Origin: a virus
Taxonomy: Duplodnaviria; Heunggongvirae; Uroviricota; Caudoviricetes
Strand: one strand, 5' to 3'
Virus record (IMG/VR): IMGVR_UViG_2529292734_000012
Length of the DNA stretch: 11,547 nt
Below are positions 1 to 11,547 of the stretch, piece by piece; positions within the stretch are counted from its first letter, which is position 1, and each line of letters starts with the position of its first letter. Under the pieces are notes generated by a model. The model was not told where the DNA came from and did no database searches. It worked only from the letters and a program-made list of their open reading frames with translations. The translations under genes were made by a program, and so were the position numbers.

Positions 1-1422
1 CATCTTAATCCCATCGTCTGGCAACTGGTTATCAACCCAGACGAAAATGAGATGGCGCGCGACTGGCAGCTGATGTTCATCAGCGTGCCGGTTATTTTAT
101 TGCTTGAACTGGTGTTTGCGACGTGGAGCTGGCAAAAGCTGCGCAGCCTGACGCGTCGTCGGCGCTTCGCGCGCCCGCTGGCCGCATTCTTATTTATCGC
201 CTTTATCGCCTCGCATGTGGTGTATATCTGGGCCGATGCCAACTTCTATCGCCCGATCACCATGCAGCGCGCTAACCTGCCGCTTTCGTACCCGATGACG
301 GCGCGACGTTTTCTTGAGAAGCATGGTCTGCTTGATGCGCAGGAGTATCAACGCCGTCTTATTGAGCAAGGTAATCCAGACGCCGTTTCCGTTCAGTATC
401 CGTTAAGCGAACTGCGCTATCGCGATATGGGCACCGGGCAGAATGTGCTGTTGATTACTGTCGATGGCCTGAACTACTCACGCTTCGAGAAGCAGATGCC
501 TGCGCTGGCAGGTTTTGCTGAGCAAAATATTTCGTTCACGCGCCATATGAGCTCCGGCAACACTACAGACAACGGCATCTTTGGCCTGTTCTATGGCATC
601 TCGCCGAGCTATATGGACGGCATTCTGTCGACCCGTACCCCTGCGGCGTTAATTACTGCGCTTAATCAGCAAGGCTATCAGCTGGGATTATTCTCATCAG
701 ATGGCTTTACCAGCCCGCTGTATCGCCAGGCATTGTTGTCAGATTTCTCGATGCCGAGCGTACGCACCCAATCCGACGAGCAGACCGCCACGCAGTGGAT
801 CAACTGGCTGGGCCGCTACGCACAAGAAGATAACCGCTGGTTCTCGTGGGTCTCTTTCAATGGCACTAACATTGACGACAGCAATCAGCAGGCATTTGCA
901 CGGAAATATAGCCGGGCGGCAGGCAATGTCGATGACCAGATCAACCGCGTGCTCAATGCACTGCGTGATTCTGGCAAACTGGACAATACGGTGGTGATTA
1001 TCACTGCCGGTCGGGGTATTCCGCTGAGCGAAGACGAAGAAACCTTTGACTGGTCCCACGGTCATCTGCAGGTGCCATTAGTGATTCACTGGCCAGGCAC
1101 GCCGGCGCAGCGTATTAATGCTCTGACTGATCATACCGATCTGATGACGACGCTGATGCAACGCCTGCTACATGTCAGCACACCTGCCAGCGAATATTCG
1201 CAAGGTCAGGATTTGTTCAACCCTCAACGCCGTCATTACTGGGTTACTGCAGCGGATAACGATACGCTGGCAATTACCACCCCGAAAAAGACGCTGGTGC
1301 TGAACAATAACGGTAAATACCGCACTTACAACTTACGTGGTGAAAGAGTGAAAGATGAAAAACCACAGTTAAGTTTGTTATTGCAAGTGCTGACAGACGA
1401 GAAGCGTTTTATCGCTAACTGA
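1..1422 (+). CDS. yejM: Inner-membrane protein with periplasmic sulfatase-like domain (YejM/PbgA/LapC-like), 5'-truncated by the window edge; reading frame is open from base 1
   Basis: Frame 1 is open from position 1 to the stop at 1420-1422. N-terminal hydrophobic segments are followed by a sulfatase/alkaline-phosphatase-like region (LLITVDGLNYSRF). Position immediately upstream of a tRNA-Pro(GGG) gene matches the yejM-proL arrangement in E. coli. Confidence 0.8.
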   Translation, partial: HLNPIVWQLVINPDENEMARDWQLMFISVPVILLLELVFATWSWQKLRSLTRRRRFARPLAAFLFIAFIASHVVYIWADANFYRPITMQRANLPLSYPMTARRFLEKHGLLDAQEYQRRLIEQGNPDAVSVQYPLSELRYRDMGTGQNVLLITVDGLNYSRFEKQMPALAGFAEQNISFTRHMSSGNTTDNGIFGLFYGISPSYMDGILSTRTPAALITALNQQGYQLGLFSSDGFTSPLYRQALLSDFSMPSVRTQSDEQTATQWINWLGRYAQEDNRWFSWVSFNGTNIDDSNQQAFARKYSRAAGNVDDQINRVLNALRDSGKLDNTVVIITAGRGIPLSEDEETFDWSHGHLQVPLVIHWPGTPAQRINALTDHTDLMTTLMQRLLHVSTPASEYSQGQDLFNPQRRHYWVTAADNDTLAITTPKKTLVLNNNGKYRTYNLRGERVKDEKPQLSLLLQVLTDEKRFIAN

Positions 1423-1454
1423 TTAATTATAAATCAGTTAGCAAAATATCTTAC

Positions 1455-1482
1455 TTGCAATCGGTGTGGAAAACGGTAGTAT
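1455..1482 (+). promoter_or_regulatory. Putative sigma70 promoter of the tRNA-Pro gene
   Basis: TTGCAA (1455-1460), 16-bp spacer, TAGTAT (1477-1482), about 14 bp upstream of the tRNA 5' end. Confidence 0.4.
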
Positions 1483-1496
1483 TAGCAGCCACGAGT

Positions 1497-1573
1497 CGGC
1501 ACGTAGCGCAGTCTGGTAGCGCACCGTCATGGGGTGTCGGGGGTCGGAGGTTCAAATCCTCTCGTGCCGACCA
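1497..1573 (+). tRNA. proL: tRNA-Pro (anticodon GGG), 77 nt with encoded CCA
   Basis: Sequence CGGCACGTAGCGCAG...GGTTCAAATCCTCTCGTGCCGACCA has acceptor-stem complementarity (CGGCACG/CGTGCCG), a T-loop GGTTCAAATCC and an anticodon loop AUGGGGU. It matches the E. coli proL tRNA as I recall it. Confidence 0.9.
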
Positions 1574-1610
1574 AATCGAATATCGGACAGCATCGGTAAC
1601 CTATTGAAAG

Positions 1611-1648
1611 CCCGTTAATTTACTGATTAACGGGCTTTTTGTTGTTTT
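1611..1648 (+). terminator. Rho-independent terminator downstream of tRNA-Pro
   Basis: Inverted repeat CCCGTTAAT (1611-1619) / ATTAACGGG (1626-1634) followed by CTTTTTGTTGTTTT. Confidence 0.7.
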
Positions 1649-1694
1649 CAGTCGCCGGATTGAATCGGTAAGATAGGGTTATAACCGGATTTTT

Positions 1695-1766
1695 TAGCTA
1701 CACGTTTAGCTATACGGTCCAGCGTGTAGCTAAAGCCGTATAGCTACGACCAGGCATATAGCTACC
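1695..1766. promoter_or_regulatory. Array of TAGCTA(C/T)ACG-type direct and inverted repeats upstream of the integrase gene (candidate integrase arm sites or int operator)
   Basis: tagctacacg (1695-1704), tagctatacg (1707-1716), cgtgtagcta (1723-1732, inverted), cgtatagcta (1737-1746, inverted), tagctacg (1741-1748), tagctacc (1759-1766). Confidence 0.5.
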
Positions 1767-1781
1767 GATGAGTAAAAAAAC

Positions 1782-3023
1782 ATGGCACGAAAAACCACCC
1801 CACTAACTATTACGGAGATCAAAAACGCACGACCAGGGGAAAAGGAATATACCCTGCAGGATGGCGGAGGATTATTTCTTCTGGTGAAGCCCTCCGGATC
1901 AAAAATCTGGCGTTTTACGTACTACCGCCCGGCAGATAAAAAACGGACTATTATCAGCCTTGGATCGCTAAATGATGTTTCCCTGTCTGATGCCAGAGAG
2001 CGACGGAATGAATACAGGTCACTCATAGCAAAGGGAACTGACCCACAGGACTACGAACGCCGGAAACGTGAAGCAGAGAGCAGGAAAAAGGGCAACACGT
2101 TCGAAAAAGTTGCCTTGGACTGGTACGAGATGAAAAAAGGCCAGAATCTGGCTTACAACACGATTAAGGATATCTGGCGATCCCTGGAAAAATACGTATT
2201 CCCGTACATCGGAAACACGCCAATAGATACCCTCACCGCTCGCCGCTTTGTTGAGATACTCACACCCATTAAAGCACGCGGCAACCTGGAAACTCTGAAA
2301 CGCGTTTTACAACGCATCAATGAAGTGATGGATTTTGCTGCCAACAGTGGGCTGATTGACATCAACACCGCCGCGAACGTCCGCAAGGCATTCCCTTCCC
2401 CCACTAAAAAGCATATGCCAACCATCCGACCGGAACAGCTACCGCAGCTAATGCACGATTTATCGGTCGCCAGCATAGAACGGCAAACCAGATTGCTAAT
2501 CGAGTGGCAACTGCTGACCGTAGCACGCCCAGCCGAAGCAGCCGCCGCACGCTGGGAAGAAATAGATCTCGATGCCGAAACATGGACGATTCCAGCCGGA
2601 CGCATGAAGATGCGCCGTGACCATGTGATCCCTCTTTGCGGTCAGGCGATGGCTGTACTGGAAACAATGAAGCCAATCAGCGCACACAGGGAACATGTTT
2701 TTCCCAGCCTTAAAAATCCAATACTGCCAATGAGCAGCCAGACCGCTAACGCTGCATTGCGCCGGATGGGATACGCTGGTGTGCTGGTGTCTCACGGATT
2801 ACGCGCCATATTCAGTACAGCAGCGAACGAGGAAGGATTCGAGCCGGACGTAATCGAGGCCGCACTCGCACACGTGGACACGAACGAGGTAAGGCGAGCA
2901 TATAACCGAAGTAACTACCTGGAAAAACGTGTAGTACTTATGCGCTGGTGGGGTGAATTTGTGGAAGCCGCAGCAACCGGAGTGACCATAGCCAGTGGTA
3001 AAAGGGGTATCCGTGCGGTGTAA
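1782..3023 (+). CDS. int: Tyrosine site-specific integrase, P4-like family (413 aa)
   Basis: Located about 200 bp downstream of a tRNA gene. N-terminal arm-binding-like region (GLFLLVKPSGSKIWRFTYY). C-terminal catalytic motifs HGLRAIFST (H-x-x-R) and RAYNRSNY (catalytic Tyr region). Confidence 0.9.
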   Translation: MARKTTPLTITEIKNARPGEKEYTLQDGGGLFLLVKPSGSKIWRFTYYRPADKKRTIISLGSLNDVSLSDARERRNEYRSLIAKGTDPQDYERRKREAESRKKGNTFEKVALDWYEMKKGQNLAYNTIKDIWRSLEKYVFPYIGNTPIDTLTARRFVEILTPIKARGNLETLKRVLQRINEVMDFAANSGLIDINTAANVRKAFPSPTKKHMPTIRPEQLPQLMHDLSVASIERQTRLLIEWQLLTVARPAEAAAARWEEIDLDAETWTIPAGRMKMRRDHVIPLCGQAMAVLETMKPISAHREHVFPSLKNPILPMSSQTANAALRRMGYAGVLVSHGLRAIFSTAANEEGFEPDVIEAALAHVDTNEVRRAYNRSNYLEKRVVLMRWWGEFVEAAATGVTIASGKRGIRAV

Positions 3024-3026
3024 CTG

Positions 3027-3076
3027 TACAAAAAACCAGTACAACCAGTGCAAACCATGCTAAACCATCGTATAAT
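3027..3076 (+). promoter_or_regulatory. Degenerate ~9-bp tandem repeats overlapping a putative promoter (-10 TATAAT at 3071-3076)
   Basis: CCAGTACAA / CCAGTGCAA / ACCATGCTAA / ACCATCGTA in tandem, immediately followed by TATAAT. Confidence 0.35.
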
Positions 3077-3136
3077 CGCCTATCTCCTCAACAGACAAGG
3101 AAAAACCCGACTCATGAGAAATCGAGATTTATTGAA

Positions 3137-3379
3137 ATGGTCTGGCACGAAAAATCATCCAATGTCTGCGGTGAAGGGCTGCAACTGGCGTTAATGGCAA
3201 ATCGTGAATTCTGGTCAACATACGATCCGGAAGACAAATCAACAGCCCCCACAAAACACGAGGTAGTCAGTTTTTTACGCTCGCGTGGCGCATCGAAAAA
3301 TCTGGCTGAAAGCATCGACAAGGTGCTGAGGCCCACCAGCCTTAAATGTGGTGGGCGACCTAAGAAGTGGAAACGGTAA
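3137..3379 (+). CDS. Hypothetical small protein (80 aa; alternative start at 3194), basic C-terminus
   Basis: ORF sits between a promoter-like element and a strong intrinsic terminator. There is no convincing Shine-Dalgarno sequence and no family was recognised. Confidence 0.35.
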   Translation: MVWHEKSSNVCGEGLQLALMANREFWSTYDPEDKSTAPTKHEVVSFLRSRGASKNLAESIDKVLRPTSLKCGGRPKKWKR

Positions 3380-3384
3380 TCACA

Positions 3385-3416
3385 ATAGCGGCCCCTTGCG
3401 GTCGCTATTTTTTTGC
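3385..3416 (+). terminator. Rho-independent terminator
   Basis: GC-rich hairpin AGCGGCC-CCTTGC-GGTCGCT followed by ATTTTTTTG. Confidence 0.65.
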
Positions 3417-3449
3417 AAAAAGAAAGCGTAATCAATGAGATAAAAAACA

Positions 3450-3484
3450 GTGAGTACCGTTTTAAAACGGTGAGTACTGTTTTT
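3450..3484. promoter_or_regulatory. Direct repeat GTGAGTAC(C/T)GTTTT x2 flanking a perfect 16-bp palindrome ACCGTTTTAAAACGGT, upstream of the AlpA-like gene
   Basis: Copies at 3450-3463 and 3470-3483; palindrome at 3456-3471. Candidate operator or activator site. Confidence 0.45.
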
Positions 3485-3548
3485 CCCGCCCTGCCCTGTT
3501 TTACCGTATTTACCACCGGAATACGCCGGATTAACGAGGTAAAACACG

Positions 3549-3755
3549 ATGGAAGTAATCAGAAAAATTCTTACCCGTCAGGAAGTAAAAAATATTCTGC
3601 GCATCAAGGCAGACAGTTCGCTACAGGACATGATCAACGCCGGAAAATTCCCGAAAGGCTTCAAAATCGGTCTGCGCCGTGTTGGCTGGTATGAAGATGA
3701 GGTGCAGGCCTGGTTGAAAGAACGCGAGGAAGAAGCGCGCGGAACGGCTGCGTAA
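3549..3755 (+). CDS. alpA: AlpA-family phage transcriptional regulator / excisionase-like HTH protein (68 aa)
   Basis: Short MerR-like HTH protein (LTRQEVKNILRIKADSSLQDMINAGKFPKGFKIGLRRVGWYEDEVQAWL) with the conserved Trp-containing C-terminus typical of AlpA/Vis proteins. GAGGT RBS. Position just after the integrase as in P4-like and PICI elements. Confidence 0.75.
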   Translation: MEVIRKILTRQEVKNILRIKADSSLQDMINAGKFPKGFKIGLRRVGWYEDEVQAWLKEREEEARGTAA

Positions 3756-3903
3756 TGGTGTGAGGTGTAACGCAATGAACATAACAAAAAGCGCCCCGTT
3801 GCCGGAGCGCCCTTGTGAACAATTAACCTGCTGCGAAAAAAATGGATCAGTGCAGGGGAATTATATCAACTGTGTGAAGAAGCGCCACTATTGCCGGATA
3901 ACA

Positions 3904-3934
3904 GGCAAAGAAAAGGCCACCAGTCACGGTGGCC
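3904..3934 (-). terminator. Rho-independent terminator for the minus-strand small-gene pair
   Basis: Perfect inverted repeat GGCCACC-agtcac-GGTGGCC (3915-3934); on the minus strand it is followed by TTTTCTTTG. Confidence 0.6.
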
Positions 3935-4013
3935 CTGCGACACAAATTTCGCGTTATCCCCAACGCATGAGCATCGCCAACAATGCCACATTTGCGGCTG
4001 GTGGGCAATGCAA

Positions 4014-4202
4014 TCAGTCTGGTTCAGTTCGTTGCCATACCTGCAATGAGCGCTTTTCCCTGTACTCTTTAAGAAATTGCTCAAGGGCAAAAGCACATGG
4101 CGCGAATCTTTCTGATTCATGCTCTATCTTTCTGCGCCGTCTTTTCCGTGCCGGTGATAATGTTTTGGTCAATTCTTTATCGGTCATTGTGTTGTCCTGC
4201 AT
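4014..4202 (-). CDS. Hypothetical small basic protein (62 aa; likely start at the second Met, 4187, giving 57 aa)
   Basis: AGGA lies 8 nt upstream of the ATG at 4187. KRRRRK basic cluster. Sits downstream of the RHH-like gene and upstream of the minus-strand terminator. No family recognised. Confidence 0.45.
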   Translation of the reverse strand: MQDNTMTDKELTKTLSPARKRRRRKIEHESERFAPCAFALEQFLKEYREKRSLQVWQRTEPD

Positions 4203-4244
4203 AGCAATGCGCCGTAGTTACTCACACCACGGCGCTGGTGATGG

Positions 4245-4424
4245 TTACTCCTGCTCTTTGGCCTTGCGGCGCTGGCGGCGTTTGATCTCGCCTTGCATTG
4301 ACGCAATGATGAATTGTGATGTGCTTTCGCCTGATTCTTTCACTGATTCCATGGCGTTTACTATTTCGTGTGGTACACGAGCCTTTAGAGCTTGTGATTT
4401 TGCGTTTGTTGTACCCGTTGCCAT
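4245..4424 (-). CDS. Small ribbon-helix-helix (Arc/CopG-like) DNA-binding protein, candidate repressor (59 aa)
   Basis: GAGGAA RBS 6 nt upstream of the ATG at 4424. Sequence MATGTTNAKSQALKARVPHEIVNAMESVKESGESTSQFIIASMQ fits a beta-strand/helix/helix RHH pattern. Divergent from the + strand operon promoter. Confidence 0.55.
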   Translation of the reverse strand: MATGTTNAKSQALKARVPHEIVNAMESVKESGESTSQFIIASMQGEIKRRQRRKAKEQE

Positions 4425-4485
4425 TTCTATTCCTCTGTTGGATTGGTGGGGGACAGTATACACAGAAAAAGCACAAATAAAACCC

Positions 4486-4526
4486 TTGACGTGGGCCACA
4501 CCTAAAGCATATAGTGGGCCACACCT
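4486..4526 (+). promoter_or_regulatory. Strong sigma70-like promoter for the rightward replication operon, with 13-bp direct-repeat operators overlapping -35 and -10
   Basis: TTGACG (4486-4491), 18-bp spacer, TATAGT (4510-4515). GTGGGCCACACCT at 4491-4503 and again at 4514-4526. Confidence 0.6.
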
Positions 4527-4552
4527 TGAGATTATCAAGGTGCATAGATGCA

Positions 4553-4587
4553 AAGCCCCGCAAGTGTCGTTACCACTCGCAGGGCTT
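4553..4587 (+). ncRNA. Stable stem-loop in the leader of the rightward operon (candidate regulatory or processed RNA element)
   Basis: 14-bp stem AAGCCCCGCAAGTG / CACTCGCAGGGCTT with two mismatches and a 7-nt loop; no following U-run. Lies about 30 nt downstream of the predicted transcription start. Confidence 0.3.
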
Positions 4588-4623
4588 CTAACCACCAACG
4601 ATAGCGAAAGTATCGAGGTAGCT

Positions 4624-4830
4624 ATGTTAAATCATACCACACACCCGCAAGGGCGGGACTCGTACAACCTGAATAAATACATCTGGCGTTTTATCGCCCT
4701 GAGCACGGCACAACCGCGTGTGATTACCATTGAGGCCACCAGCGAACAGGAAGCGCGTCAGCAATCTCCTGATGGCTGCGTGATGGTATTCGCTGCCCGT
4801 ATTCGCCAGGGGGTAGGCCATGTGCAATAA
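4624..4830 (+). CDS. Hypothetical protein (68 aa), first ORF of the rightward operon
   Basis: ATG at 4624 preceded by GAGGT. It is the C-terminal portion of an otherwise implausible 356-aa frame. Overlaps the next ORF start by 11 nt. Confidence 0.4.
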   Translation: MLNHTTHPQGRDSYNLNKYIWRFIALSTAQPRVITIEATSEQEARQQSPDGCVMVFAARIRQGVGHVQ

Positions 4831-5856: not shown

Positions 5857-6156
5857 ATGAAACTTAAATATTCTGGCTTAACTGCCAGTGGCAACACTCA
5901 CCCTAAATTTACGCGCGGCGATATTTACCGCGACCAGTACGGCGGCACGGTAATGATTAAGGGCGTGGAAGAACGGCGCGTAACCTACCGCCGTGAAGGT
6001 TACGAATATGATTGCGTGATGCCTGTTTATCAGTTCCGGCGTGATTTTTCTCTGGTACAGACCGCGCCGCATAACGTGTCCACCAGCAACGCCAGGGCAC
6101 GGGCAAACATCCAGAAGCTGAAAACCATGATTAACGGATTCAGGGGTAAAAAATGA
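5857..6156 (+). CDS. Hypothetical protein (99 aa), translationally coupled to the replication ATPase
   Basis: GGAGA RBS. Stop overlaps the start of the downstream gene (ATGA at 6153-6156). Confidence 0.5.
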   Translation: MKLKYSGLTASGNTHPKFTRGDIYRDQYGGTVMIKGVEERRVTYRREGYEYDCVMPVYQFRRDFSLVQTAPHNVSTSNARARANIQKLKTMINGFRGKK

Positions 6157-7559
6157 AACTGGCACCGAACGTAAAACTGTTACCGAAAGATAAACACACT
6201 GAGGCGGTTATTTTTGCGGGTGATAATGCTCACTCCTTTGCAGAACATTACATGATTGCACAGGCCAAAAAAGCAGGCGATCCCATCCCTCCGGTTTACC
6301 TGGGCCGTTATCAGTTAAGCGAACTGGACAATTTACAGATTGTTGATGAAGGACGATACAGAGCAAAGGTCATACGCGCCGGAAACCTGGACGATATGCA
6401 GATGCTGACCATTGCCACCAAACTGGCGATCGCAGGTGTCCGGGAAGCGCGGTTACTTTCAGAGAATTTCGAACTACTGGAGGACTGGAGCGAGCAACTA
6501 CCCCGACTTAAAGAAACCTGGGAACGCGGGGAAAGTCTGGTCATGAATGGCGGAAAGCGAAAAATCACACTTCCCATCTCATGGGGTTCTGAGGGATTCG
6601 ACGCGCAGCAAAGCTACGTAATTAAGGGGCTTATTCCGGCTGAATCATTATGCAGCACCTACGGGGCCAGCGGTTCTTATAAATCGTTCCTGGCTATTTC
6701 CTGGTCGTGTCATGTTGCCACAGGTATAGCATGGGGAGGCCGCAGGGTAAGTAAGGGCGCGGTTATCTATATCGCTGGCGAAGGCAGTATGGGCGTAAAA
6801 CGCCGCGTTAAGGCGTGGGAGATAACCCACGACAAGGTGGTTACGGATTTGTGCATCGTTAACGCGCCTGTCTTCCCTGCATCGCCTGACTATGTGGAGC
6901 AGGTTATCAGGACCGCCGGATTAGTGCAAGACAGAACGGGCGAAAGGGTGCGGATGATTGTCATTGACACACTGGCCCGTTGCTTTGGTGGTCATGATGA
7001 AAATGACTCCCGCGACATGGGGGCGTTTATCCAGGGGTGTGACGCGATAAAGCAGGCCACGGGGGCCACGGTTCTGGTTGTGCATCATTCCGGCAAGGAT
7101 GAGACGAAAGGGGCGCGGGGTTCCAGTGCATTCCGTGCGGCGCTTGATGCTGAGTTCCGAATCAGTCGGGAACATTCAGAGGCTACGGCGCTGGTTGCAG
7201 CATGTACGAAGATGAAGGACGCGGAGGAGCCAAAAGAAAGCGCCTACGACCTTAAGAGCGTGGAGGTATTTACGGATCCTGAGGGTGAAGAAATCGTGTC
7301 CATGGTGGTGATTGACGTTCCCCGCGCCCCTGCTGAACTGGAGCGCATAGAGGAGGCCGGGAACAAGACGGAAAATCACACGGCTTTATGGGGTTGTATC
7401 CGGTCACGTATACAGCATGGTGATAAATGCACGATCCCGCTGCTACGTGATGACATGAAAAAGCTGGGATATGACACAAAACACCTTAAACGATGGTTAG
7501 CCAAACTGGAAAAAGACGGCGTGATTTGCGTCGATGGGGATGATGTTCACCCACTGTAA
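6153..7559 (+). CDS. Replication initiator/helicase-like P-loop ATPase (RepA/AAA_25-like RecA-fold), 468 aa
   Basis: Deviant Walker A GASGSYKS, Walker B-like MIVIDTLARCF, and VLVVHHSGKDETKGARGSSAF typical of RepA/AAA_25-type ATPases. Followed immediately by an iteron array. Confidence 0.75.
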   Translation: MKLAPNVKLLPKDKHTEAVIFAGDNAHSFAEHYMIAQAKKAGDPIPPVYLGRYQLSELDNLQIVDEGRYRAKVIRAGNLDDMQMLTIATKLAIAGVREARLLSENFELLEDWSEQLPRLKETWERGESLVMNGGKRKITLPISWGSEGFDAQQSYVIKGLIPAESLCSTYGASGSYKSFLAISWSCHVATGIAWGGRRVSKGAVIYIAGEGSMGVKRRVKAWEITHDKVVTDLCIVNAPVFPASPDYVEQVIRTAGLVQDRTGERVRMIVIDTLARCFGGHDENDSRDMGAFIQGCDAIKQATGATVLVVHHSGKDETKGARGSSAFRAALDAEFRISREHSEATALVAACTKMKDAEEPKESAYDLKSVEVFTDPEGEEIVSMVVIDVPRAPAELERIEEAGNKTENHTALWGCIRSRIQHGDKCTIPLLRDDMKKLGYDTKHLKRWLAKLEKDGVICVDGDDVHPL

Positions 7560-7760
7560 AAAGTGGGCGTTAAAAGTGGGAATAGTGGGTAATTTAACTG
7601 GAATTTAACAAAATCGCCCACTTTCCCACGTGTATACATCCCAAAAAGTGGGCACTAAAAAAATTCTTATGAAACAGTACGATATAAAACCACAAAATCC
7701 CAGGTGGGACGAAGTGGGAAACCATGAAAAGTGGGTAGAAAAAGTGGGCACAGGTGGGCG
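7550..7760. repeat. Iteron-type origin of replication: at least 9 direct and 3 inverted copies of (A)AAGTGGG flanking an AT-rich core
   Basis: AGTGGG/GGTGGG at 7562, 7575, 7584, 7647, 7704, 7713, 7730, 7743, 7754; inverted CCCACT/TCCCAC at 7550, 7617, 7624. AT-rich AATTTAAC x2 at 7591-7609. Lies directly 3' of the rep ATPase gene. Confidence 0.65.
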
Positions 7761-7761
7761 C

Positions 7762-8013
7762 ATGACCAGAAAAACCAGAGATAAGACAGCACCAAAATAT
7801 CGCGCATTAGACATGACAGAGCACGCCTTAAAGGTGGCAATCAGAACGATAGACCGCCACGCCGGAGAAGGATACGCGAAAGCACATCCCGAACTGATAA
7901 GCGCATTCATGACCACGACGGCGGCAAATTTTGCCACGCTGACAGAGCGGGAGATTGCCGAAGCGGAACAGGTAACAACAATCAACGTTAAAACCGGAGA
8001 GGTGGAATCATGA
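7762..8013 (+). CDS. Hypothetical protein (83 aa)
   Basis: ATG at 7762 preceded by AGGTGGG. The longer frame from 7630 would run through the iterons and is rejected. Stop overlaps the SSB start (ATGA). Confidence 0.45.
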   Translation: MTRKTRDKTAPKYRALDMTEHALKVAIRTIDRHAGEGYAKAHPELISAFMTTTAANFATLTEREIAEAEQVTTINVKTGEVES

Positions 8014-8432
8014 CAGCACAGATAGCGGCTTACGGGCGGCTGGTGGCTGACCCGCAGTTAAAGACCACTAGCAAAGGGACACAAATGGCGATGGCGAGTA
8101 TGGCGGTTCCCCTGCCGTGCAGCCAGGCAGATGACGGAACGGCGACGATGTGGTTATCTGTCCTGGCGTTTGGCAGACAGGCCGACGCACTGGCAAAACA
8201 CCACAAAGGCGAACTGGTGAGCGTGGCGGGTAACATGCAGGTGAGCCAGTGGACAGGCCAGAACGGGGAAACGCGGCAGGGCTGGCAGGTTATTGCAGAC
8301 AGCGTAATCAGTGCGCGAACGGCGCGACCGGGCGGCAAAAAAGGTCAACAGGGCCAGGCTACTGACGCGCTGAACAGGGCAAAACAACAGGCGGGAAATG
8401 ATGATCCGTACGGGGATAACATACCGTTTTAA
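8010..8432 (+). CDS. ssb: Single-stranded DNA-binding protein (SSB-like, 140 aa)
   Basis: OB-fold-like N-terminal region and an acidic C-terminal tail ending DDPYGDNIPF, resembling the SSB DDDIPF tail. GGAGAGGTGG RBS. Confidence 0.7.
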   Translation: MTAQIAAYGRLVADPQLKTTSKGTQMAMASMAVPLPCSQADDGTATMWLSVLAFGRQADALAKHHKGELVSVAGNMQVSQWTGQNGETRQGWQVIADSVISARTARPGGKKGQQGQATDALNRAKQQAGNDDPYGDNIPF

Positions 8433-8445
8433 GCAACGAGTAACA

Positions 8446-8470
8446 GAGGCCGGAGCAATCCGGCTTTTAT
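8446..8470 (+). terminator. Rho-independent terminator ending the replication module
   Basis: GCCGGA-gcaa-TCCGGC hairpin followed by TTTTAT. Confidence 0.6.
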
Positions 8471-8493
8471 CAGTTGAGTCCGTCACACTACGC

Positions 8494-8519
8494 AAAAAAA
8501 AGGCCGGAATATTCCGACC
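8494..8519 (-). terminator. Rho-independent terminator on the minus strand (faces the + terminator)
   Basis: The minus strand reads GGTCGGA-ATAT-TCCGGCC followed by TTTTTTTT. Confidence 0.55.
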
Positions 8520-8704
8520 CTTTCATCACCAAAGAGAATAATTTATGTCTTTGAACTTGTAACGCTGTACAGAATGACACGTAACGCCGGATAAATAAAC
8601 GAAGATTGAAACTTTGCACACTATTGCATAGCAATGCATAAAGATGCCAAACAAGGCAGATGATAAAATTAACGCGACACTTTTACTAAGTATTAAGAGG
8701 TTAT

Positions 8705-9745
8705 ATGAGTGATTTATATTCGCCAGCCATGTTAATACAGGTTGTTAATGCCGAAGATATTCAATGGCAGATTAATTCTTTATTTATAAACCTGTTTTTT
8801 AAGCGAGTCGTTACATTTGAGACGCGGGATATTGCGCTTGATATTATTGACGATCCAGACATCCCGATGGCTGCATTTTGTTCCCCTATGGTTGGTAGTA
8901 AAGTCTCACGCGATGAAGGCTACGAATCAAAAGTAATTCGCCCTGGCTATATGAAGCCAAAAAGTAGTATCGACCCAAATAAAATAGCCGTTCGTCAACC
9001 AGGCGTATCACCTGAACAATTCAATGCATATTCATCACGCAGTTTCAAAATAAAGCGAGCGTTAGTAAGACAAGCGCAGGCAATTCGTGCGCGTATTGAG
9101 TGGCTTGCTGTTCAGGCGGTTACAACGGGGAAAAATATCATTGAAGGCGATGGAATTGAACGTTATGAACTGGACTGGAATATAAAACCACAAAATATTA
9201 TCACGCAGTCCGGCGGCACGGAGTGGAGCGGTAGAGATTTATCAACATTTGATCCAAACGATGACATCGAAGAGTACGCAGAAATCAGCGAAGGTACTAC
9301 AAATATCATCGTAATGGGCCGCAACGTATGGAAAAAATACCGCGCCTTTAAAGCAGTAAAAGATTGCCTTGATACTCGACGGGGATCTAATTCCGTTCTT
9401 GAAACGGCCCTGAAAAATCTTGGGGATTCTGTAAGCTTCAAGGGTTACGTTGGCGATGTTGCTATTGTGGTATATAGCGGACGTTATACCGACGAGGACG
9501 GCAAAGAAAAATATTTCCTTGATCCTGATTTGATGGTGCTTGGCAACACATCATTACAGGGCATCGTTGCCTACGGTGGCATTCAGGATCCTGAGTTAAT
9601 CAGAATGGGGCTGACTAAAGCCGAACTTGCGCCGAAAAATTACATCGTACCAGGTGATCCGGCTATTGAATATGTGCAGACGCACAGCGCACCGCAACCA
9701 ATACCGGCCCGCATCAATCGTTTTGTTACCGTTCGCATTGGTTAA
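8705..9745 (+). CDS. Phage major capsid protein, lambda gpE family (346 aa)
   Basis: Long collinear similarity to lambda gpE as I recall it: ITQSGGTEWS, FKAVK..LDTRRGSNS.LETA, GDVAIVVYSG, MVLGNT, YGGIQD. Similar length (346 vs 341 aa). AAGAGG RBS. Confidence 0.9.
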   Translation: MSDLYSPAMLIQVVNAEDIQWQINSLFINLFFKRVVTFETRDIALDIIDDPDIPMAAFCSPMVGSKVSRDEGYESKVIRPGYMKPKSSIDPNKIAVRQPGVSPEQFNAYSSRSFKIKRALVRQAQAIRARIEWLAVQAVTTGKNIIEGDGIERYELDWNIKPQNIITQSGGTEWSGRDLSTFDPNDDIEEYAEISEGTTNIIVMGRNVWKKYRAFKAVKDCLDTRRGSNSVLETALKNLGDSVSFKGYVGDVAIVVYSGRYTDEDGKEKYFLDPDLMVLGNTSLQGIVAYGGIQDPELIRMGLTKAELAPKNYIVPGDPAIEYVQTHSAPQPIPARINRFVTVRIG

Positions 9746-9754
9746 GGGGGAGCA

Positions 9755-10096
9755 ATGGCTACTCATTACACTGAACTCATGGCTGGCACTGAAGCACTGG
9801 TTACTACGTTGGGGATATTTTCAGCTAATAAAGGGGTAATTCCTGCATTTACGCCACTGATGCAAGAAGATGCAACTGGTGCACTGGTGGTATGGGATGG
9901 AACGAGCGCAGGCAAAGCTGTTTATGTTTCCGCTGTACAAATCGATACAGCGACAAAAACGCAGGCTCAGGTTTATAAAACCGGCGTCTTAAATGTTGAT
10001 GCTCTGAACTGGCCTGAGTCTGTAACACAACTATCAGCAAAAGTTGCTGCGTTTGTTGGCTCAGGTATTTCTGTTCAGCCGCTGGCACGTGTGTGA
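9755..10096 (+). CDS. Head decoration protein, lambda gpD family (113 aa)
   Basis: AFTPLMQEDATGALVVWDGTSAGKAV...YKTGVLNVDALNWPE...AFVGSGISV parallels lambda gpD ([26 protein letters not shown]...YKSGTFRYEDVLWPE...AFAGTAISIV). Confidence 0.85.
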   Translation: MATHYTELMAGTEALVTTLGIFSANKGVIPAFTPLMQEDATGALVVWDGTSAGKAVYVSAVQIDTATKTQAQVYKTGVLNVDALNWPESVTQLSAKVAAFVGSGISVQPLARV

Positions 10097-10105
10097 GGTA
10101 CGAGA

Positions 10106-10423
10106 ATGATTGAAAGAGATAGTCAGCTACGAGAGCTATTAGATATCGATGACAAAATGAGTTTAAGCGAGCGCCTTGTTGATATGGATCAGGTAGTGGA
10201 GCTTACAACCCTTAGCCGTCGCACATTGCTAAACCTTGAGGCTCGCGGAGAGTTCCCCGAACGCGTACAGGTTACGAAAGGGCGCAAGGCATGGTATTTA
10301 AGCGAGGTTGTTGCGTGGATTAACAACATTCCGCGCGCATCAAATTATTGCCTTGTTCCCACCCCGAAAAACCTGATGCGGCGTTATGCCTCAAGATTGA
10401 ACGCGCCAGGCGTAATGCCCTGA
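10106..10423 (+). CDS. HTH DNA-binding protein (AlpA/MerR-like HTH_17 type), 105 aa
   Basis: VVELTTLSRRTLLNLEARGEFPERVQVTKGRKAWYLSEVVAWI resembles the AlpA/excisionase-type HTH. GAGGT RBS. Lies between the decoration gene and cos. Confidence 0.55.
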   Translation: MIERDSQLRELLDIDDKMSLSERLVDMDQVVELTTLSRRTLLNLEARGEFPERVQVTKGRKAWYLSEVVAWINNIPRASNYCLVPTPKNLMRRYASRLNAPGVMP

Positions 10424-10489
10424 AAGGACGCAATAAGTTGATTGGTTGATGAAATTAGGGCCCGTTCTGGCTGGCGGGTCCTTTCCGGC

Positions 10490-10545
10490 GATCCGGCAGG
10501 CTACGGGGCGGCGACCTTGCGGTTTTTCGCTATTTATGAGCTTTT
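10490..10545. other. Lambda-type cos site (cosN cohesive-end sequence GGGCGGCGACCT at 10506-10517, plus start of cosB)
   Basis: ctACGGGGCGGCGACCTtGCGGtTTTTCGCTATTTATGAg matches the lambda left-end/cosN sequence GGGCGGCGACCTCGCGGGTTTTCGCTATTTATGAAAA (from memory) with a few substitutions. Sits about 130 bp upstream of a Nu1-like gene, as in lambda. Confidence 0.7.
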
Positions 10546-10548
10546 TCA

Positions 10549-10577
10549 GGGTGGTGGTGGTGGTTTTGTTGTTTGTT
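10549..10577. repeat. Short simple-sequence repeat (GGT)5 followed by a T/G-rich (TTG)n-like tract inside the cosB-equivalent region
   Basis: GGGTGGTGGTGGTGGTTTTGTTGTTTGTT. Confidence 0.6.
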
Positions 10578-10649
10578 CTATCTCCATGAATGAAAAGGGA
10601 AGATAACACCAACACACCAACCTGAAACCTTAACTAAGTGGGGATATTG

Positions 10650-11192
10650 ATGAAATCGCACCTGATGAACAAAAAAACTATGGCGCAAAGCTGCCGCGTA
10701 AGTGCGACAGCGTTCGACAAGTGGGGAGTGACTCCCGTTGAGCGTAAAGGCCGTGAGGCGTTTTATGATGTTGCTAGCGTGATAGACAATAGGGTTAACA
10801 ATGCAATTAACCAACTTACAAACGACAAAGGCGAGATTGATGATGATGAACTTTTACGCGTAAGAATCAGATTAATGACGGCCCAGGCGGAAGCGCAGGA
10901 ACTTAAAAACGAGCGCGAACGCGGCGAGGTGATTGATACAAAGTTTTGCATCTACGCGATTTCAAAGCTGGCACAACAAATTTCTTCAATCATGGACAGC
11001 CTCCCGCTCACAATGCAAAGGCGCTTTCCCGATATAAGGCCGTATATGCTGGATGAACTAAAAAGGGAAATAGTCAAAGCATGTAACGCATGTGCAAGAC
11101 TTGACGAAAACCTGCCACAGATACTGGCTGATTACCTGATGGAAACTACCGGAAACGTGCCTGAGAAGTTGCTACAGAACAAAGGCGAGTAA
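10650..11192 (+). CDS. Terminase small subunit, lambda Nu1-like (start uncertain: 10638 GTG, 10650 ATG or 10665 ATG)
   Basis: LMTAQAEAQELKNERERGEVIDTKFCIYAISKLAQQISSIMDSLPLTMQRRFPDI parallels lambda Nu1 LTRAQADAQELKNARDSAEVVETAFCTFVLSRIAGEIASILDGLPLSVQRRFPEL. The N-terminal DNA-binding region is more divergent. Confidence 0.8.
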   Translation: MKSHLMNKKTMAQSCRVSATAFDKWGVTPVERKGREAFYDVASVIDNRVNNAINQLTNDKGEIDDDELLRVRIRLMTAQAEAQELKNERERGEVIDTKFCIYAISKLAQQISSIMDSLPLTMQRRFPDIRPYMLDELKREIVKACNACARLDENLPQILADYLMETTGNVPEKLLQNKGE

Positions 11193-11265
11193 CCGCCGCC
11201 CCGTAACGGGCCATAATTCCAGGAAGGACCCGACGACACCAGGCTATCAGAACGATGAGGGCACA

Positions 11266-11547
11266 ATGACTGAAGCCGAACTACTGGGATTAATCCGCCG
11301 CGTCGTCGGAATCAGCCAGCAGCATGACGAACAGGCCACACAGCCGGACAGCGTGACCGCTGAAAATTATGTGCGTGTTGTTGCTGAGGTGATGCGCCGT
11401 GATGGTATTGAGCTTAACGGCGTGGATATGCGCAACATACGAACAAGAGTCCTTGAGTTGCTGGCATACCGTCGCCGTTCTCAACAACGGAGGGAGAGCG
11501 CGAAAAATACTTACCAGTGGAAGAAGCCGGAACGGTTGCGGCGGTAG
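11266..11547 (+). CDS. Hypothetical protein (93 aa), Arg-rich C-terminus; stop codon is the last three bases of the window
   Basis: ATG preceded by GAGGG. Occupies the position where lambda has gene A but shows no resemblance to gpA. Confidence 0.4.
   Translation: MTEAELLGLIRRVVGISQQHDEQATQPDSVTAENYVRVVAEVMRRDGIELNGVDMRNIRTRVLELLAYRRRSQQRRESAKNTYQWKKPERLRR

Follow-up and report, generated by a model that had tools for sequence, protein, structure and literature searches.

The stretch analyzed here, 11,547 nt of the IMG/VR record IMGVR_UViG_2529292734_000012 (hereafter the window, numbered from its first letter), is Escherichia coli chromosome carrying a phage-inducible chromosomal island (PICI) at tRNA-Pro/yejM. 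Between the island's rep gene (6153-7559, + strand), which encodes a 468-amino-acid (aa) helicase-initiator of the RepA family (RecA fold, superfamily 4 [SF4]-like), and a downstream 83-aa gene lies a 202-bp gap, positions 7560-7761, that is occupied by short repeats and is very probably the replication origin of this tRNA-Pro-integrated island. Repeat enrichment, gene context, the predicted fold of the initiator, the exchange of rep and its repeats as one cassette, and covariation between protein and DNA were all observed. A sequence-only reading of the same DNA had proposed an iteron origin directly 3' of the rep ATPase gene, read by the C-terminal domain of its product, and genomic context, published precedent, and comparative evidence lend support to that proposal. 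An iteron origin right after rep is already known for PICIs, and the same Rep type is present in the published island EcCI042; what is added here is a precise anatomy of the RepA type of origin, with a dyad found to be conserved in Enterobacterales genera, along with evidence that otherwise identical islands exchange rep and origin (ori) as a single cassette, and a residue-to-base specificity rule.

AGTGGG occurred 15 times on the two strands of the window, compared with 3.9 ± 1.9 times in shuffled sequences (none of 200 shuffles reached 15), and 9 of the 15 fell within 7550-7748; relaxing the motif to RGTGGG added two sites, at 7703 and 7753, and neither scan revealed a second iteron cluster elsewhere in the window. 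For the GTGGG/CCCAC core, 12 copies were found in 7550-7758 versus 20 across the remaining 11.3 kb, the expectation for 211 nt being 0.37 (Poisson P of about 1e-14), which bears out the earlier count of at least 12 copies in both orientations. Nine of the twelve cores are AGTGGG, seven of these being exact AAGTGGG, with nine on the + strand and three on the - strand. Those in the left half start at 7550 (-), 7563 (+), 7576 (+), 7585 (+), 7617 (-), 7625 (-, CGTGGG), and 7648 (+), and those in the right half, all on the + strand, at 7704 (GGTGGG), 7714, 7731, 7744, and 7754 (GGTGGG). The repeats begin at the rep stop codon (TAA, 7557-7559) and finish 4 nt short of the next gene. The outlying inverted AGTGGG at 7550-7555 (- strand) overlaps the last rep codons, was not present at that position in the related loci L002 to L005, and is probably nonfunctional, leaving 11 conserved copies plus one outlier (7 to the left and 5 to the right of the tract 7653-7699; 2 or 3 inverted) of a unit of about 9 nt with irregular spacing of 9 to 17 nt.

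These sites form three groups: three direct copies, an inverted-direct dyad, and five direct copies. The left array (7560-7589, + strand) consists of AAAGTGGG at 7560-7567, AAAGTGGG at 7573-7580, and ATAGTGGG at 7582-7589, positions that are retained in relatives of other genera. It is followed by a first AT-rich spacer (7590-7615, about 80% AT), in which AATTTAAC occurs at both 7591-7598 and 7602-7609, and then by the dyad element (7616-7653), which combines an inverted GCCCACTTT (7616-7624), a degenerate inverted CCCACG (7625-7630), the palindrome TGTATACA (7631-7638), and a direct AAAGTGGGC (7645-7653), and which was also picked up as inverted repeats I1 and I9 in a repeat search of the window. 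The second AT-rich spacer (7653-7699, about 76% AT) is the longest, forms the weakest duplex in the region, and includes the conserved AAAAAAAT.CTTATGAAACA, a conserved block in alignment A4. The right array (7701-7758, + strand) closes the region with five direct copies at spacings of 10, 17, 13, and 10 nt, a pattern retained in relatives. Its last iteron, CAGGTGGG (7751-7758), also provides the 83-aa gene (start codon ATG, 7762) with a Shine-Dalgarno-like sequence, and the putative origin and the translation start of that gene therefore overlap. The earlier description of two clusters around a single AT-rich core was right as to the repeats and the AT-rich DNA but not as to their number, there being three site groups and two AT-rich spacers.

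The same architecture was recovered well outside E. coli. When 185,579 species genomes were scanned with a Rep alignment, 80 loci were recovered at 41 to 62% identity (mostly 51 to 62%) in Xenorhabdus, Pectobacterium, Pantoea, Serratia, Morganella, Kosakonia, Erwinia, and other genera. In 52 of 84 loci, the interval with the highest repeat density of the whole locus proved, in an unbiased sliding scan, to be centered 61 to 114 nt past the rep stop; 1% of all 200-bp intervals in the scan attained 6 copies, and the misses were mostly two-letter motifs such as GGGGGA, which the complexity filter dropped. The order of sites and spacers repeats across genera. An inverted/direct iteron pair with a TATATA/TGTATACA-type center was found 44 to 70 nt past the rep stop in 63 related loci from Enterobacterales genera, its gap being 20 nt in 55 of them, 22 nt in 7, and 18 nt in 1; the conserved dyad could be a nucleation or first-melting site. 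The spacer after the dyad is of constant length (median, 50 nt) and has a median AT content of 73% in 59 loci, versus a locus mean of 52%, whereas the spacer before the dyad is variable, with a family median of 59% AT, and is AT-rich only in the E. coli subgroup; the former was the more AT-rich of the two in 45 of the 59 loci. It is 7653-7699 that represents the family-wide conserved AT-rich region, and this spacer is the most likely unwinding element. The duplication of AATTTAAC to which the sequence-only reading had drawn attention is real, but it lies in the spacer 7590-7615 and not in this family-wide segment.

Further evidence came from the initiator itself. Residues 146 to 317 of Rep match Pfam AAA_25 (E = 3.4e-42; 144.7 bits versus a cutoff of 27), residues 155 to 320 align with RepA of RSF1010 (PDB 1G8Y; E = 2.5e-4), and the full protein matches phrog_2850 end to end, its relatives being annotated as "helicase RepA family protein"; by these matches it belongs to the RepA (AAA_25) family, which is characterized by a RecA-fold hexameric helicase core with Walker motifs. 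The structure model of the whole protein was of moderate quality (predicted local distance difference test [pLDDT] score of 64), and its top structural match, T7 gp4 over a 385-column alignment, is no more than a hint. Residues of about 400 to 468 (7350-7556, + strand) are predicted to form a winged-helix domain. Modeled alone with AlphaFold, residues 396 to 468 gave three helices and a beta-hairpin at a pLDDT of 88, and Foldseek matched this model to the winged-helix DNA-binding domains of DtxR, Fur, LexA, and MCM8 (TM scores of 0.6 to 0.74; probabilities of 0.95 to 0.99). The putative recognition-helix region comprises residues 440 to 454 (7470-7514, + strand) and includes His444 (codon CAC, 7482-7484), the residue that covaries with an iteron base. 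In the model, the N terminus of the third helix holds His444, a place from which winged-helix proteins usually read bases. At the other end of Rep, residues 1 to 125 (6153-6527) form a confidently modeled alpha/beta domain (pLDDT of 80 to 94) that had no Pfam match even at E = 10. Longer Rep relatives (680 to 730 aa) carry a primase Zn-ribbon and Toprim ahead of the AAA_25 helicase, and hhalign detected no similarity between this part of them and residues 1 to 125 (probability, 0.3).

Sequence comparisons of Rep and its repeats revealed that the two change together. The AAGTG half-site is common to all relatives, and the later bases track the sequence just ahead of a conserved RW(L/I/V) in the Rep C terminus. 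When the residue three positions ahead of that Arg (His444 in the window Rep) was scored against the base one after GTG, Asn was paired with A (GTGAG) in 29 of 29 loci with an array, His with G (GTGGG) in 14 of 15, Lys with G (GTGGGGG) in 28 of 28, and Ser with C (GTGCGGC) in 8 of 8. In closely related E. coli loci, the switch from G to A is concerted in every copy, inverted ones included. The rule also held when repeats were predicted blind in two loci not examined before: P0050 (..KNM.., Asn) proved to have seven copies of AAGTGAG (eight of AGTGAG), and P0118 (..RKSF.., Ser) nine copies of GTGCGGCA. The fourth core base of the iteron follows a single residue, which lies where the predicted recognition helix starts. 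The Asn-A and His/Lys-G preferences agree with general knowledge of amino acid-base contacts. A Gly at the specificity position (P0112) goes with a further, GTGCGCGG-like repeat type. In locus L092 (Logan SRR31120051), a Rep relative with Gly at this position is followed at 2117-2550 by GC-rich GTGCGCGG-like repeats over a gap of about 430 nt, a further iteron type whose organization is not clearly that of the other loci.

An exchangeable rep-ori cassette (6178-7813) was delimited by comparison with L006 (E. coli GTEN_23), which matches the window at 99% identity over 1-4275 and 7814-11547 and has 6143-6177 in common with it as well. The rep slot of L006 encodes an unrelated D5_N/DUF5906/Pox_D5 primase-helicase of the D5/P4-alpha type, which is followed at L006 positions 7740-8026 by AT-rich DNA with about nine CTGTTCACC/GGTGAACAG repeats arranged around it, some in each orientation. 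Given near-identical flanks around an unrelated rep and unrelated iterons, rep and ori are exchanged together. The CTGTTCACC repeats correspond to the P4 type I iteron; TGTTCACC is the type I ori/crr iteron of phage P4. EcCICFT073 has 11 copies of GGTAGA in the same slot. Three unrelated initiators are thus each accompanied by a repeat family unrelated to the other two, although the genes downstream, like alpA, are unchanged. The left junction falls after rep codon 8: the unrelated Reps of the window and of L006 and EcCICFT073 all start with MKLAPNVK, and a 35-nt segment that includes the first 8 rep codons is identical between the window (6143-6177) and L006 (5915-5949). The right junction is near codon 18 of the 83-aa gene, with similarity resuming at about 7814 in the window and 8073 in L006. 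From the alignments, 6143-6177 and about 7814 look like recombination joints that would allow rep-ori cassettes to be swapped between islands.

Taken as an origin, the region suggests the following course of events. Upon induction, the island would make its 468-aa Rep, with an N-terminal domain, a RepA/gp4-like RecA-fold core, and a C-terminal winged helix. The winged-helix domain would read the 9-nt iteron AAAAGTGGG, in which the AAGTG half is family-wide and the bases after it would be read by the start of the recognition helix, with His444 paired to the G after GTG. Rep protomers would occupy the three direct copies, the divergent dyad around the TGTATACA core, and the five direct copies, bracketing the AT tract of roughly 47 nt at 7653-7699, and the duplex would open in this tract or, alternatively, at the dyad's TATA core. 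The Rep helicase may then load itself at the opened duplex, and the neighboring island-encoded single-stranded DNA-binding protein (SSB) may cover the single strands. Priming would fall to a host primase, because this Rep variant is without a recognizable primase domain.

Such an arrangement has close precedents. The DNA directly 3' of the initiator gene serves as the origin of Gram-negative PICIs, where an AT-rich region has a set of iterons on either side; the rep-ori of EcCICFT073 is able to drive the replication of a plasmid, and E. coli has four allelic types of Pri-Rep, that of EcCI042 among them (Fillol-Salom et al. 2018, PMC6092414). The Rep proteins of staphylococcal pathogenicity islands (SaPIs) are helicases that load themselves and that bind, through a C-terminal winged-helix domain, 6 to 12 penta- or hexanucleotide iterons directly following rep; the origin has an AT-rich center and iterons in opposite orientations (Qiao et al. 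2022, PMC9371898). In light of these precedents, an iteron origin is the textbook reading for an element of this kind. All the sequence-level features of PICI/SaPI rep-ori modules were found in the window, namely, an origin-like region 3' of the initiator gene, 6 to 12 short iterons in both orientations flanking AT-rich DNA, and a helicase with a predicted C-terminal winged helix. EcCI042 encodes a 466-aa RepA-family helicase followed by AAGTGAG repeats and therefore has the same replicon type as the window. Full-text literature searches found no paper dissecting this Rep type.

The module differs from each of the characterized systems in at least one component. It shares with other Gram-negative PICIs the island family, gene order, location 3' of rep, and iteron sets around AT-rich DNA, but EcCICFT073, the sole functionally tested member, has an unrelated D5/SF3-type primase-helicase and GGTAGA iterons. 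Like the SaPI modules, it pairs an initiator-helicase bearing a predicted C-terminal winged helix with iterons right after rep, in both orientations and with an AT-rich center; SaPI Reps, however, are AAA+ proteins of SF3 or SF6 (MCM-like) from another host phylum, whereas the window Rep is RecA-fold, RepA/T7-gp4-like, and without sequence relationship to them. The alpha protein of phage P4 is likewise a satellite initiator in which a helicase is joined to a C-terminal origin-binding domain reading short repeats, but the window Rep is without the primase, D5_N, and Pox_D5 domains of that SF3 D5-like helicase, its iteron differs from the TGTTCACC-type repeats, and the window has no crr-like second cluster. 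RepA of the IncQ plasmid RSF1010 has the same ATPase core family (AAA_25, 1G8Y). RSF1010 leaves iteron binding to a separate RepC protein and priming to RepB'; the window helicase instead has its own predicted winged helix, and no RepC or RepB homologue was found in the window. T7 gp4 primase-helicases provided the best whole-model structural match and resemble the longer Rep relatives in domain content (Zn-ribbon, Toprim, and AAA_25), while the window Rep is without the Zn-ribbon and Toprim and has an extra C-terminal, predicted origin-binding domain. The sequence-only reading had likened the layout to both satellite and plasmid origins. The satellite (PICI/SaPI) part of that comparison holds, but the classical iteron theta plasmid part does not, as the iteron is about 9 nt long and not a 17- to 22-bp tandem unit as in plasmids of the Rep_3/pi/TrfA type, no DnaA box was found, and the initiator is a helicase and not a nonhelicase WH1-WH2 protein.

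We also entertain, at somewhat short of an even chance, the reading that these loci constitute a distinct class. Its members would have a self-loading RecA-fold (SF4, RepA/gp4-like) helicase with its own winged-helix reader, a near one-residue/one-base code (His/Lys-G, Asn-A, and Ser-C after AAGTG), and a fixed scaffold of three direct copies, a TATA dyad, an AT tract of roughly 50 nt, and four or five direct copies; the primase module would have been lost in the 468-aa E. coli variant, with the host primase recruited via the N-terminal domain. If so, replicon specificity and the incompatibility of coresident PICIs would be predictable and could be reengineered from sequence alone. The rule and the anatomy could in any case be of use in annotating satellite origins and in forecasting cross-replication or competition between coresident islands, and the system offers a simple bacterial model for how an SF4 helicase finds and loads onto its own origin.

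Several points weigh against the assignment of 7560-7761 as a Rep-dependent origin. Rep-dependent replication, iteron binding, and the melting site are what we infer from the observations above, and function is transferred by position and architecture and not by homology, because the validated EcCICFT073 origin has a different, SF3/D5-type Rep. The Foldseek E values for the winged-helix domain were weak (0.03 to 0.16), which is attributable to its small size. Many of the loci behind the covariation are closely related (Xenorhabdus), and the independent switches are therefore far fewer than the loci, although the E. coli Asn/His switch, at least, is independent of the Xenorhabdus clade. No recognizable primase was found in Rep or in the rest of the window. 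Finally, no DnaA box (1 mismatch allowed), integration host factor site, or GATC was found in the origin region, and Fis-like sites amounted to one weak match; an independent hallmark of origins is thereby lost, but the absence of the first three also fits an initiator that needs no host initiator.

One could instead suppose that the repeats are Rep-binding sites with a mainly regulatory role, either in transcription of the 83-aa, ssb, and capsid genes or in copy number control via handcuffing or titration, and that initiation occurs elsewhere. The array is indeed part of an operon transcribed in one direction and directly precedes the next gene, whose ribosome-binding site is overlapped by the last copy, and plasmid iterons are known to have control roles as well. 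No sigma-70-like promoter was predicted in 7300-8100, however, the conserved dyad and the fixed-length AT spacer of roughly 50 nt are an origin-type and not an operator-type layout, and a second iteron cluster that might be the true origin is missing from the window. As the equivalent slot of EcCICFT073 is moreover required for replication (PMC6092414), we regard a purely regulatory array as unlikely.

Binding of the repeats by a protein other than Rep, such as AlpA, the 83-aa protein, SSB, DUF4222, or a helper-phage protein, would make the region an operator, packaging, or interference site. Small basic proteins are able to bind DNA, and the 83-aa protein has a basic N-terminal tail of roughly 17 residues that lies inside the exchanged cassette and differs by rep type. 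The cassette exchange and the absence of these neighbors from array-bearing loci both contradict this explanation: the window and L006 have 99% identical alpA and downstream genes yet wholly different repeats, and of 78 distant loci in which the array still follows Rep directly, one has a homologue of DUF4222 and none has a homologue of the 83-aa protein or of SSB. With the repeat sequence also following a residue of Rep's own recognition helix, a non-Rep binder is very unlikely.

That the region is instead a structured RNA or a protein N terminus with incidental repeats (open reading frames [ORFs] span it on both strands, and its RNA fold z-score is -2.1, as the inverted iterons would produce) is extremely unlikely, given that no Rfam family besides tRNA was detected, that the long ORFs have no Pfam match, that the downstream protein family is exactly 83 residues long from a start at 7762, and that change among relatives is concerted over repeat copies and neither compensatory nor codon-like. 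A terminator search turned up a single weak, terminator-like hairpin (- strand), a yield that shuffled sequences also reach. The 126-aa antisense ORF on the - strand matched no family and was never annotated. As for the 127-aa ORF from GTG 7630, which had been dismissed as an artefact of reading through the repeats, only its 44-codon extension is spurious, because a phrog_1231 match spans the 83 residues from 7762 (residues 1 to 83 of 83; E = 7.5e-51); its last 83 codons (7762-8013, + strand) are a real, conserved gene without assigned function, annotated as a coding sequence by PGAP in close relatives, including the 99%-identical L001. This gene is coupled to ssb by an ATGA overlap (8010-8013) and marks the downstream limit of the putative origin. 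Its homologues sit after the unrelated rep-ori modules of L006 and EcCICFT073, giving three rep-ori types in E. coli PICIs.

The remaining island genes are consistent with this context. All are on the + strand, alongside tRNA-Pro(GGG) (1497-1573) and yejM: an integrase (1782-3023), AlpA (3549-3755), small genes without assigned function between alpA and the DUF4222 gene, DUF4222 itself (5857-6156), rep, the 83-aa gene, the island-encoded SSB (8010-8432; Pfam SSB, E = 4e-16; TIGR00621), a capsid-E-like gene (8705-9745), a decoration-like gene (9755-10096), a second AlpA-family helix-turn-helix gene separate from alpA (10106-10423), and terS, encoding a Nu1-type small terminase (10638-11192). 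This order matches that of the Gram-negative PICIs EcCICFT073 and EcCI042, and fits what is expected of such islands, which measure about 8 to 15 kb, occupy a specific attachment (att) site, are transcribed rightward in one direction, and have int, alpA, a rep module, and packaging or interference genes; the right end of this island lies beyond the window. The rep-ori-ssb stretch was covered to at least 80% in 108 of 5,426 complete E. coli genomes. A search of phage genomes with this stretch gave one weak partial match, and a search of plasmids gave five, covering at most 76% of the query at 72 to 76% identity, with some of the records being chromosome sized; no plasmid record covered 80% of the query, and none of the phage or plasmid matches carried a rep_origin annotation. 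The capsid-E, decoration, and Nu1 genes had raised the possibility of a capsid-forming PICI (cf-PICI), but this was dropped, as the classical EcCICFT073 and EcCI042 have the same genes and the 99%-identical module in L001 stops after terS, without portal or TerL; the cf-PICI paper contains nothing on origins.

Two minor observations concern the left part of the island. The published yejM att core TTTGTAGTTATACG was not found in the window, but five TAGCTA(C/T)-type repeats (e.g., TTAGCTACACGTTTAGCTATACGG) lie at 1695-1765, between tRNA-Pro and int; these are similar to but distinct from the published core TTTGTAGTTATACGTTTGTAGTTATACGG and are probably att or arm-type sites of this integrase variant. 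The 356-aa ORF with a GTG start at 3760-4830 is probably not a single gene: matches to Icd-like/repressor families are confined to roughly the last 80 residues, and in relatives the same interval is annotated as a partial icd-like pseudogene, a YlcI/YnfO gene, and, on the other strand, a small gene.

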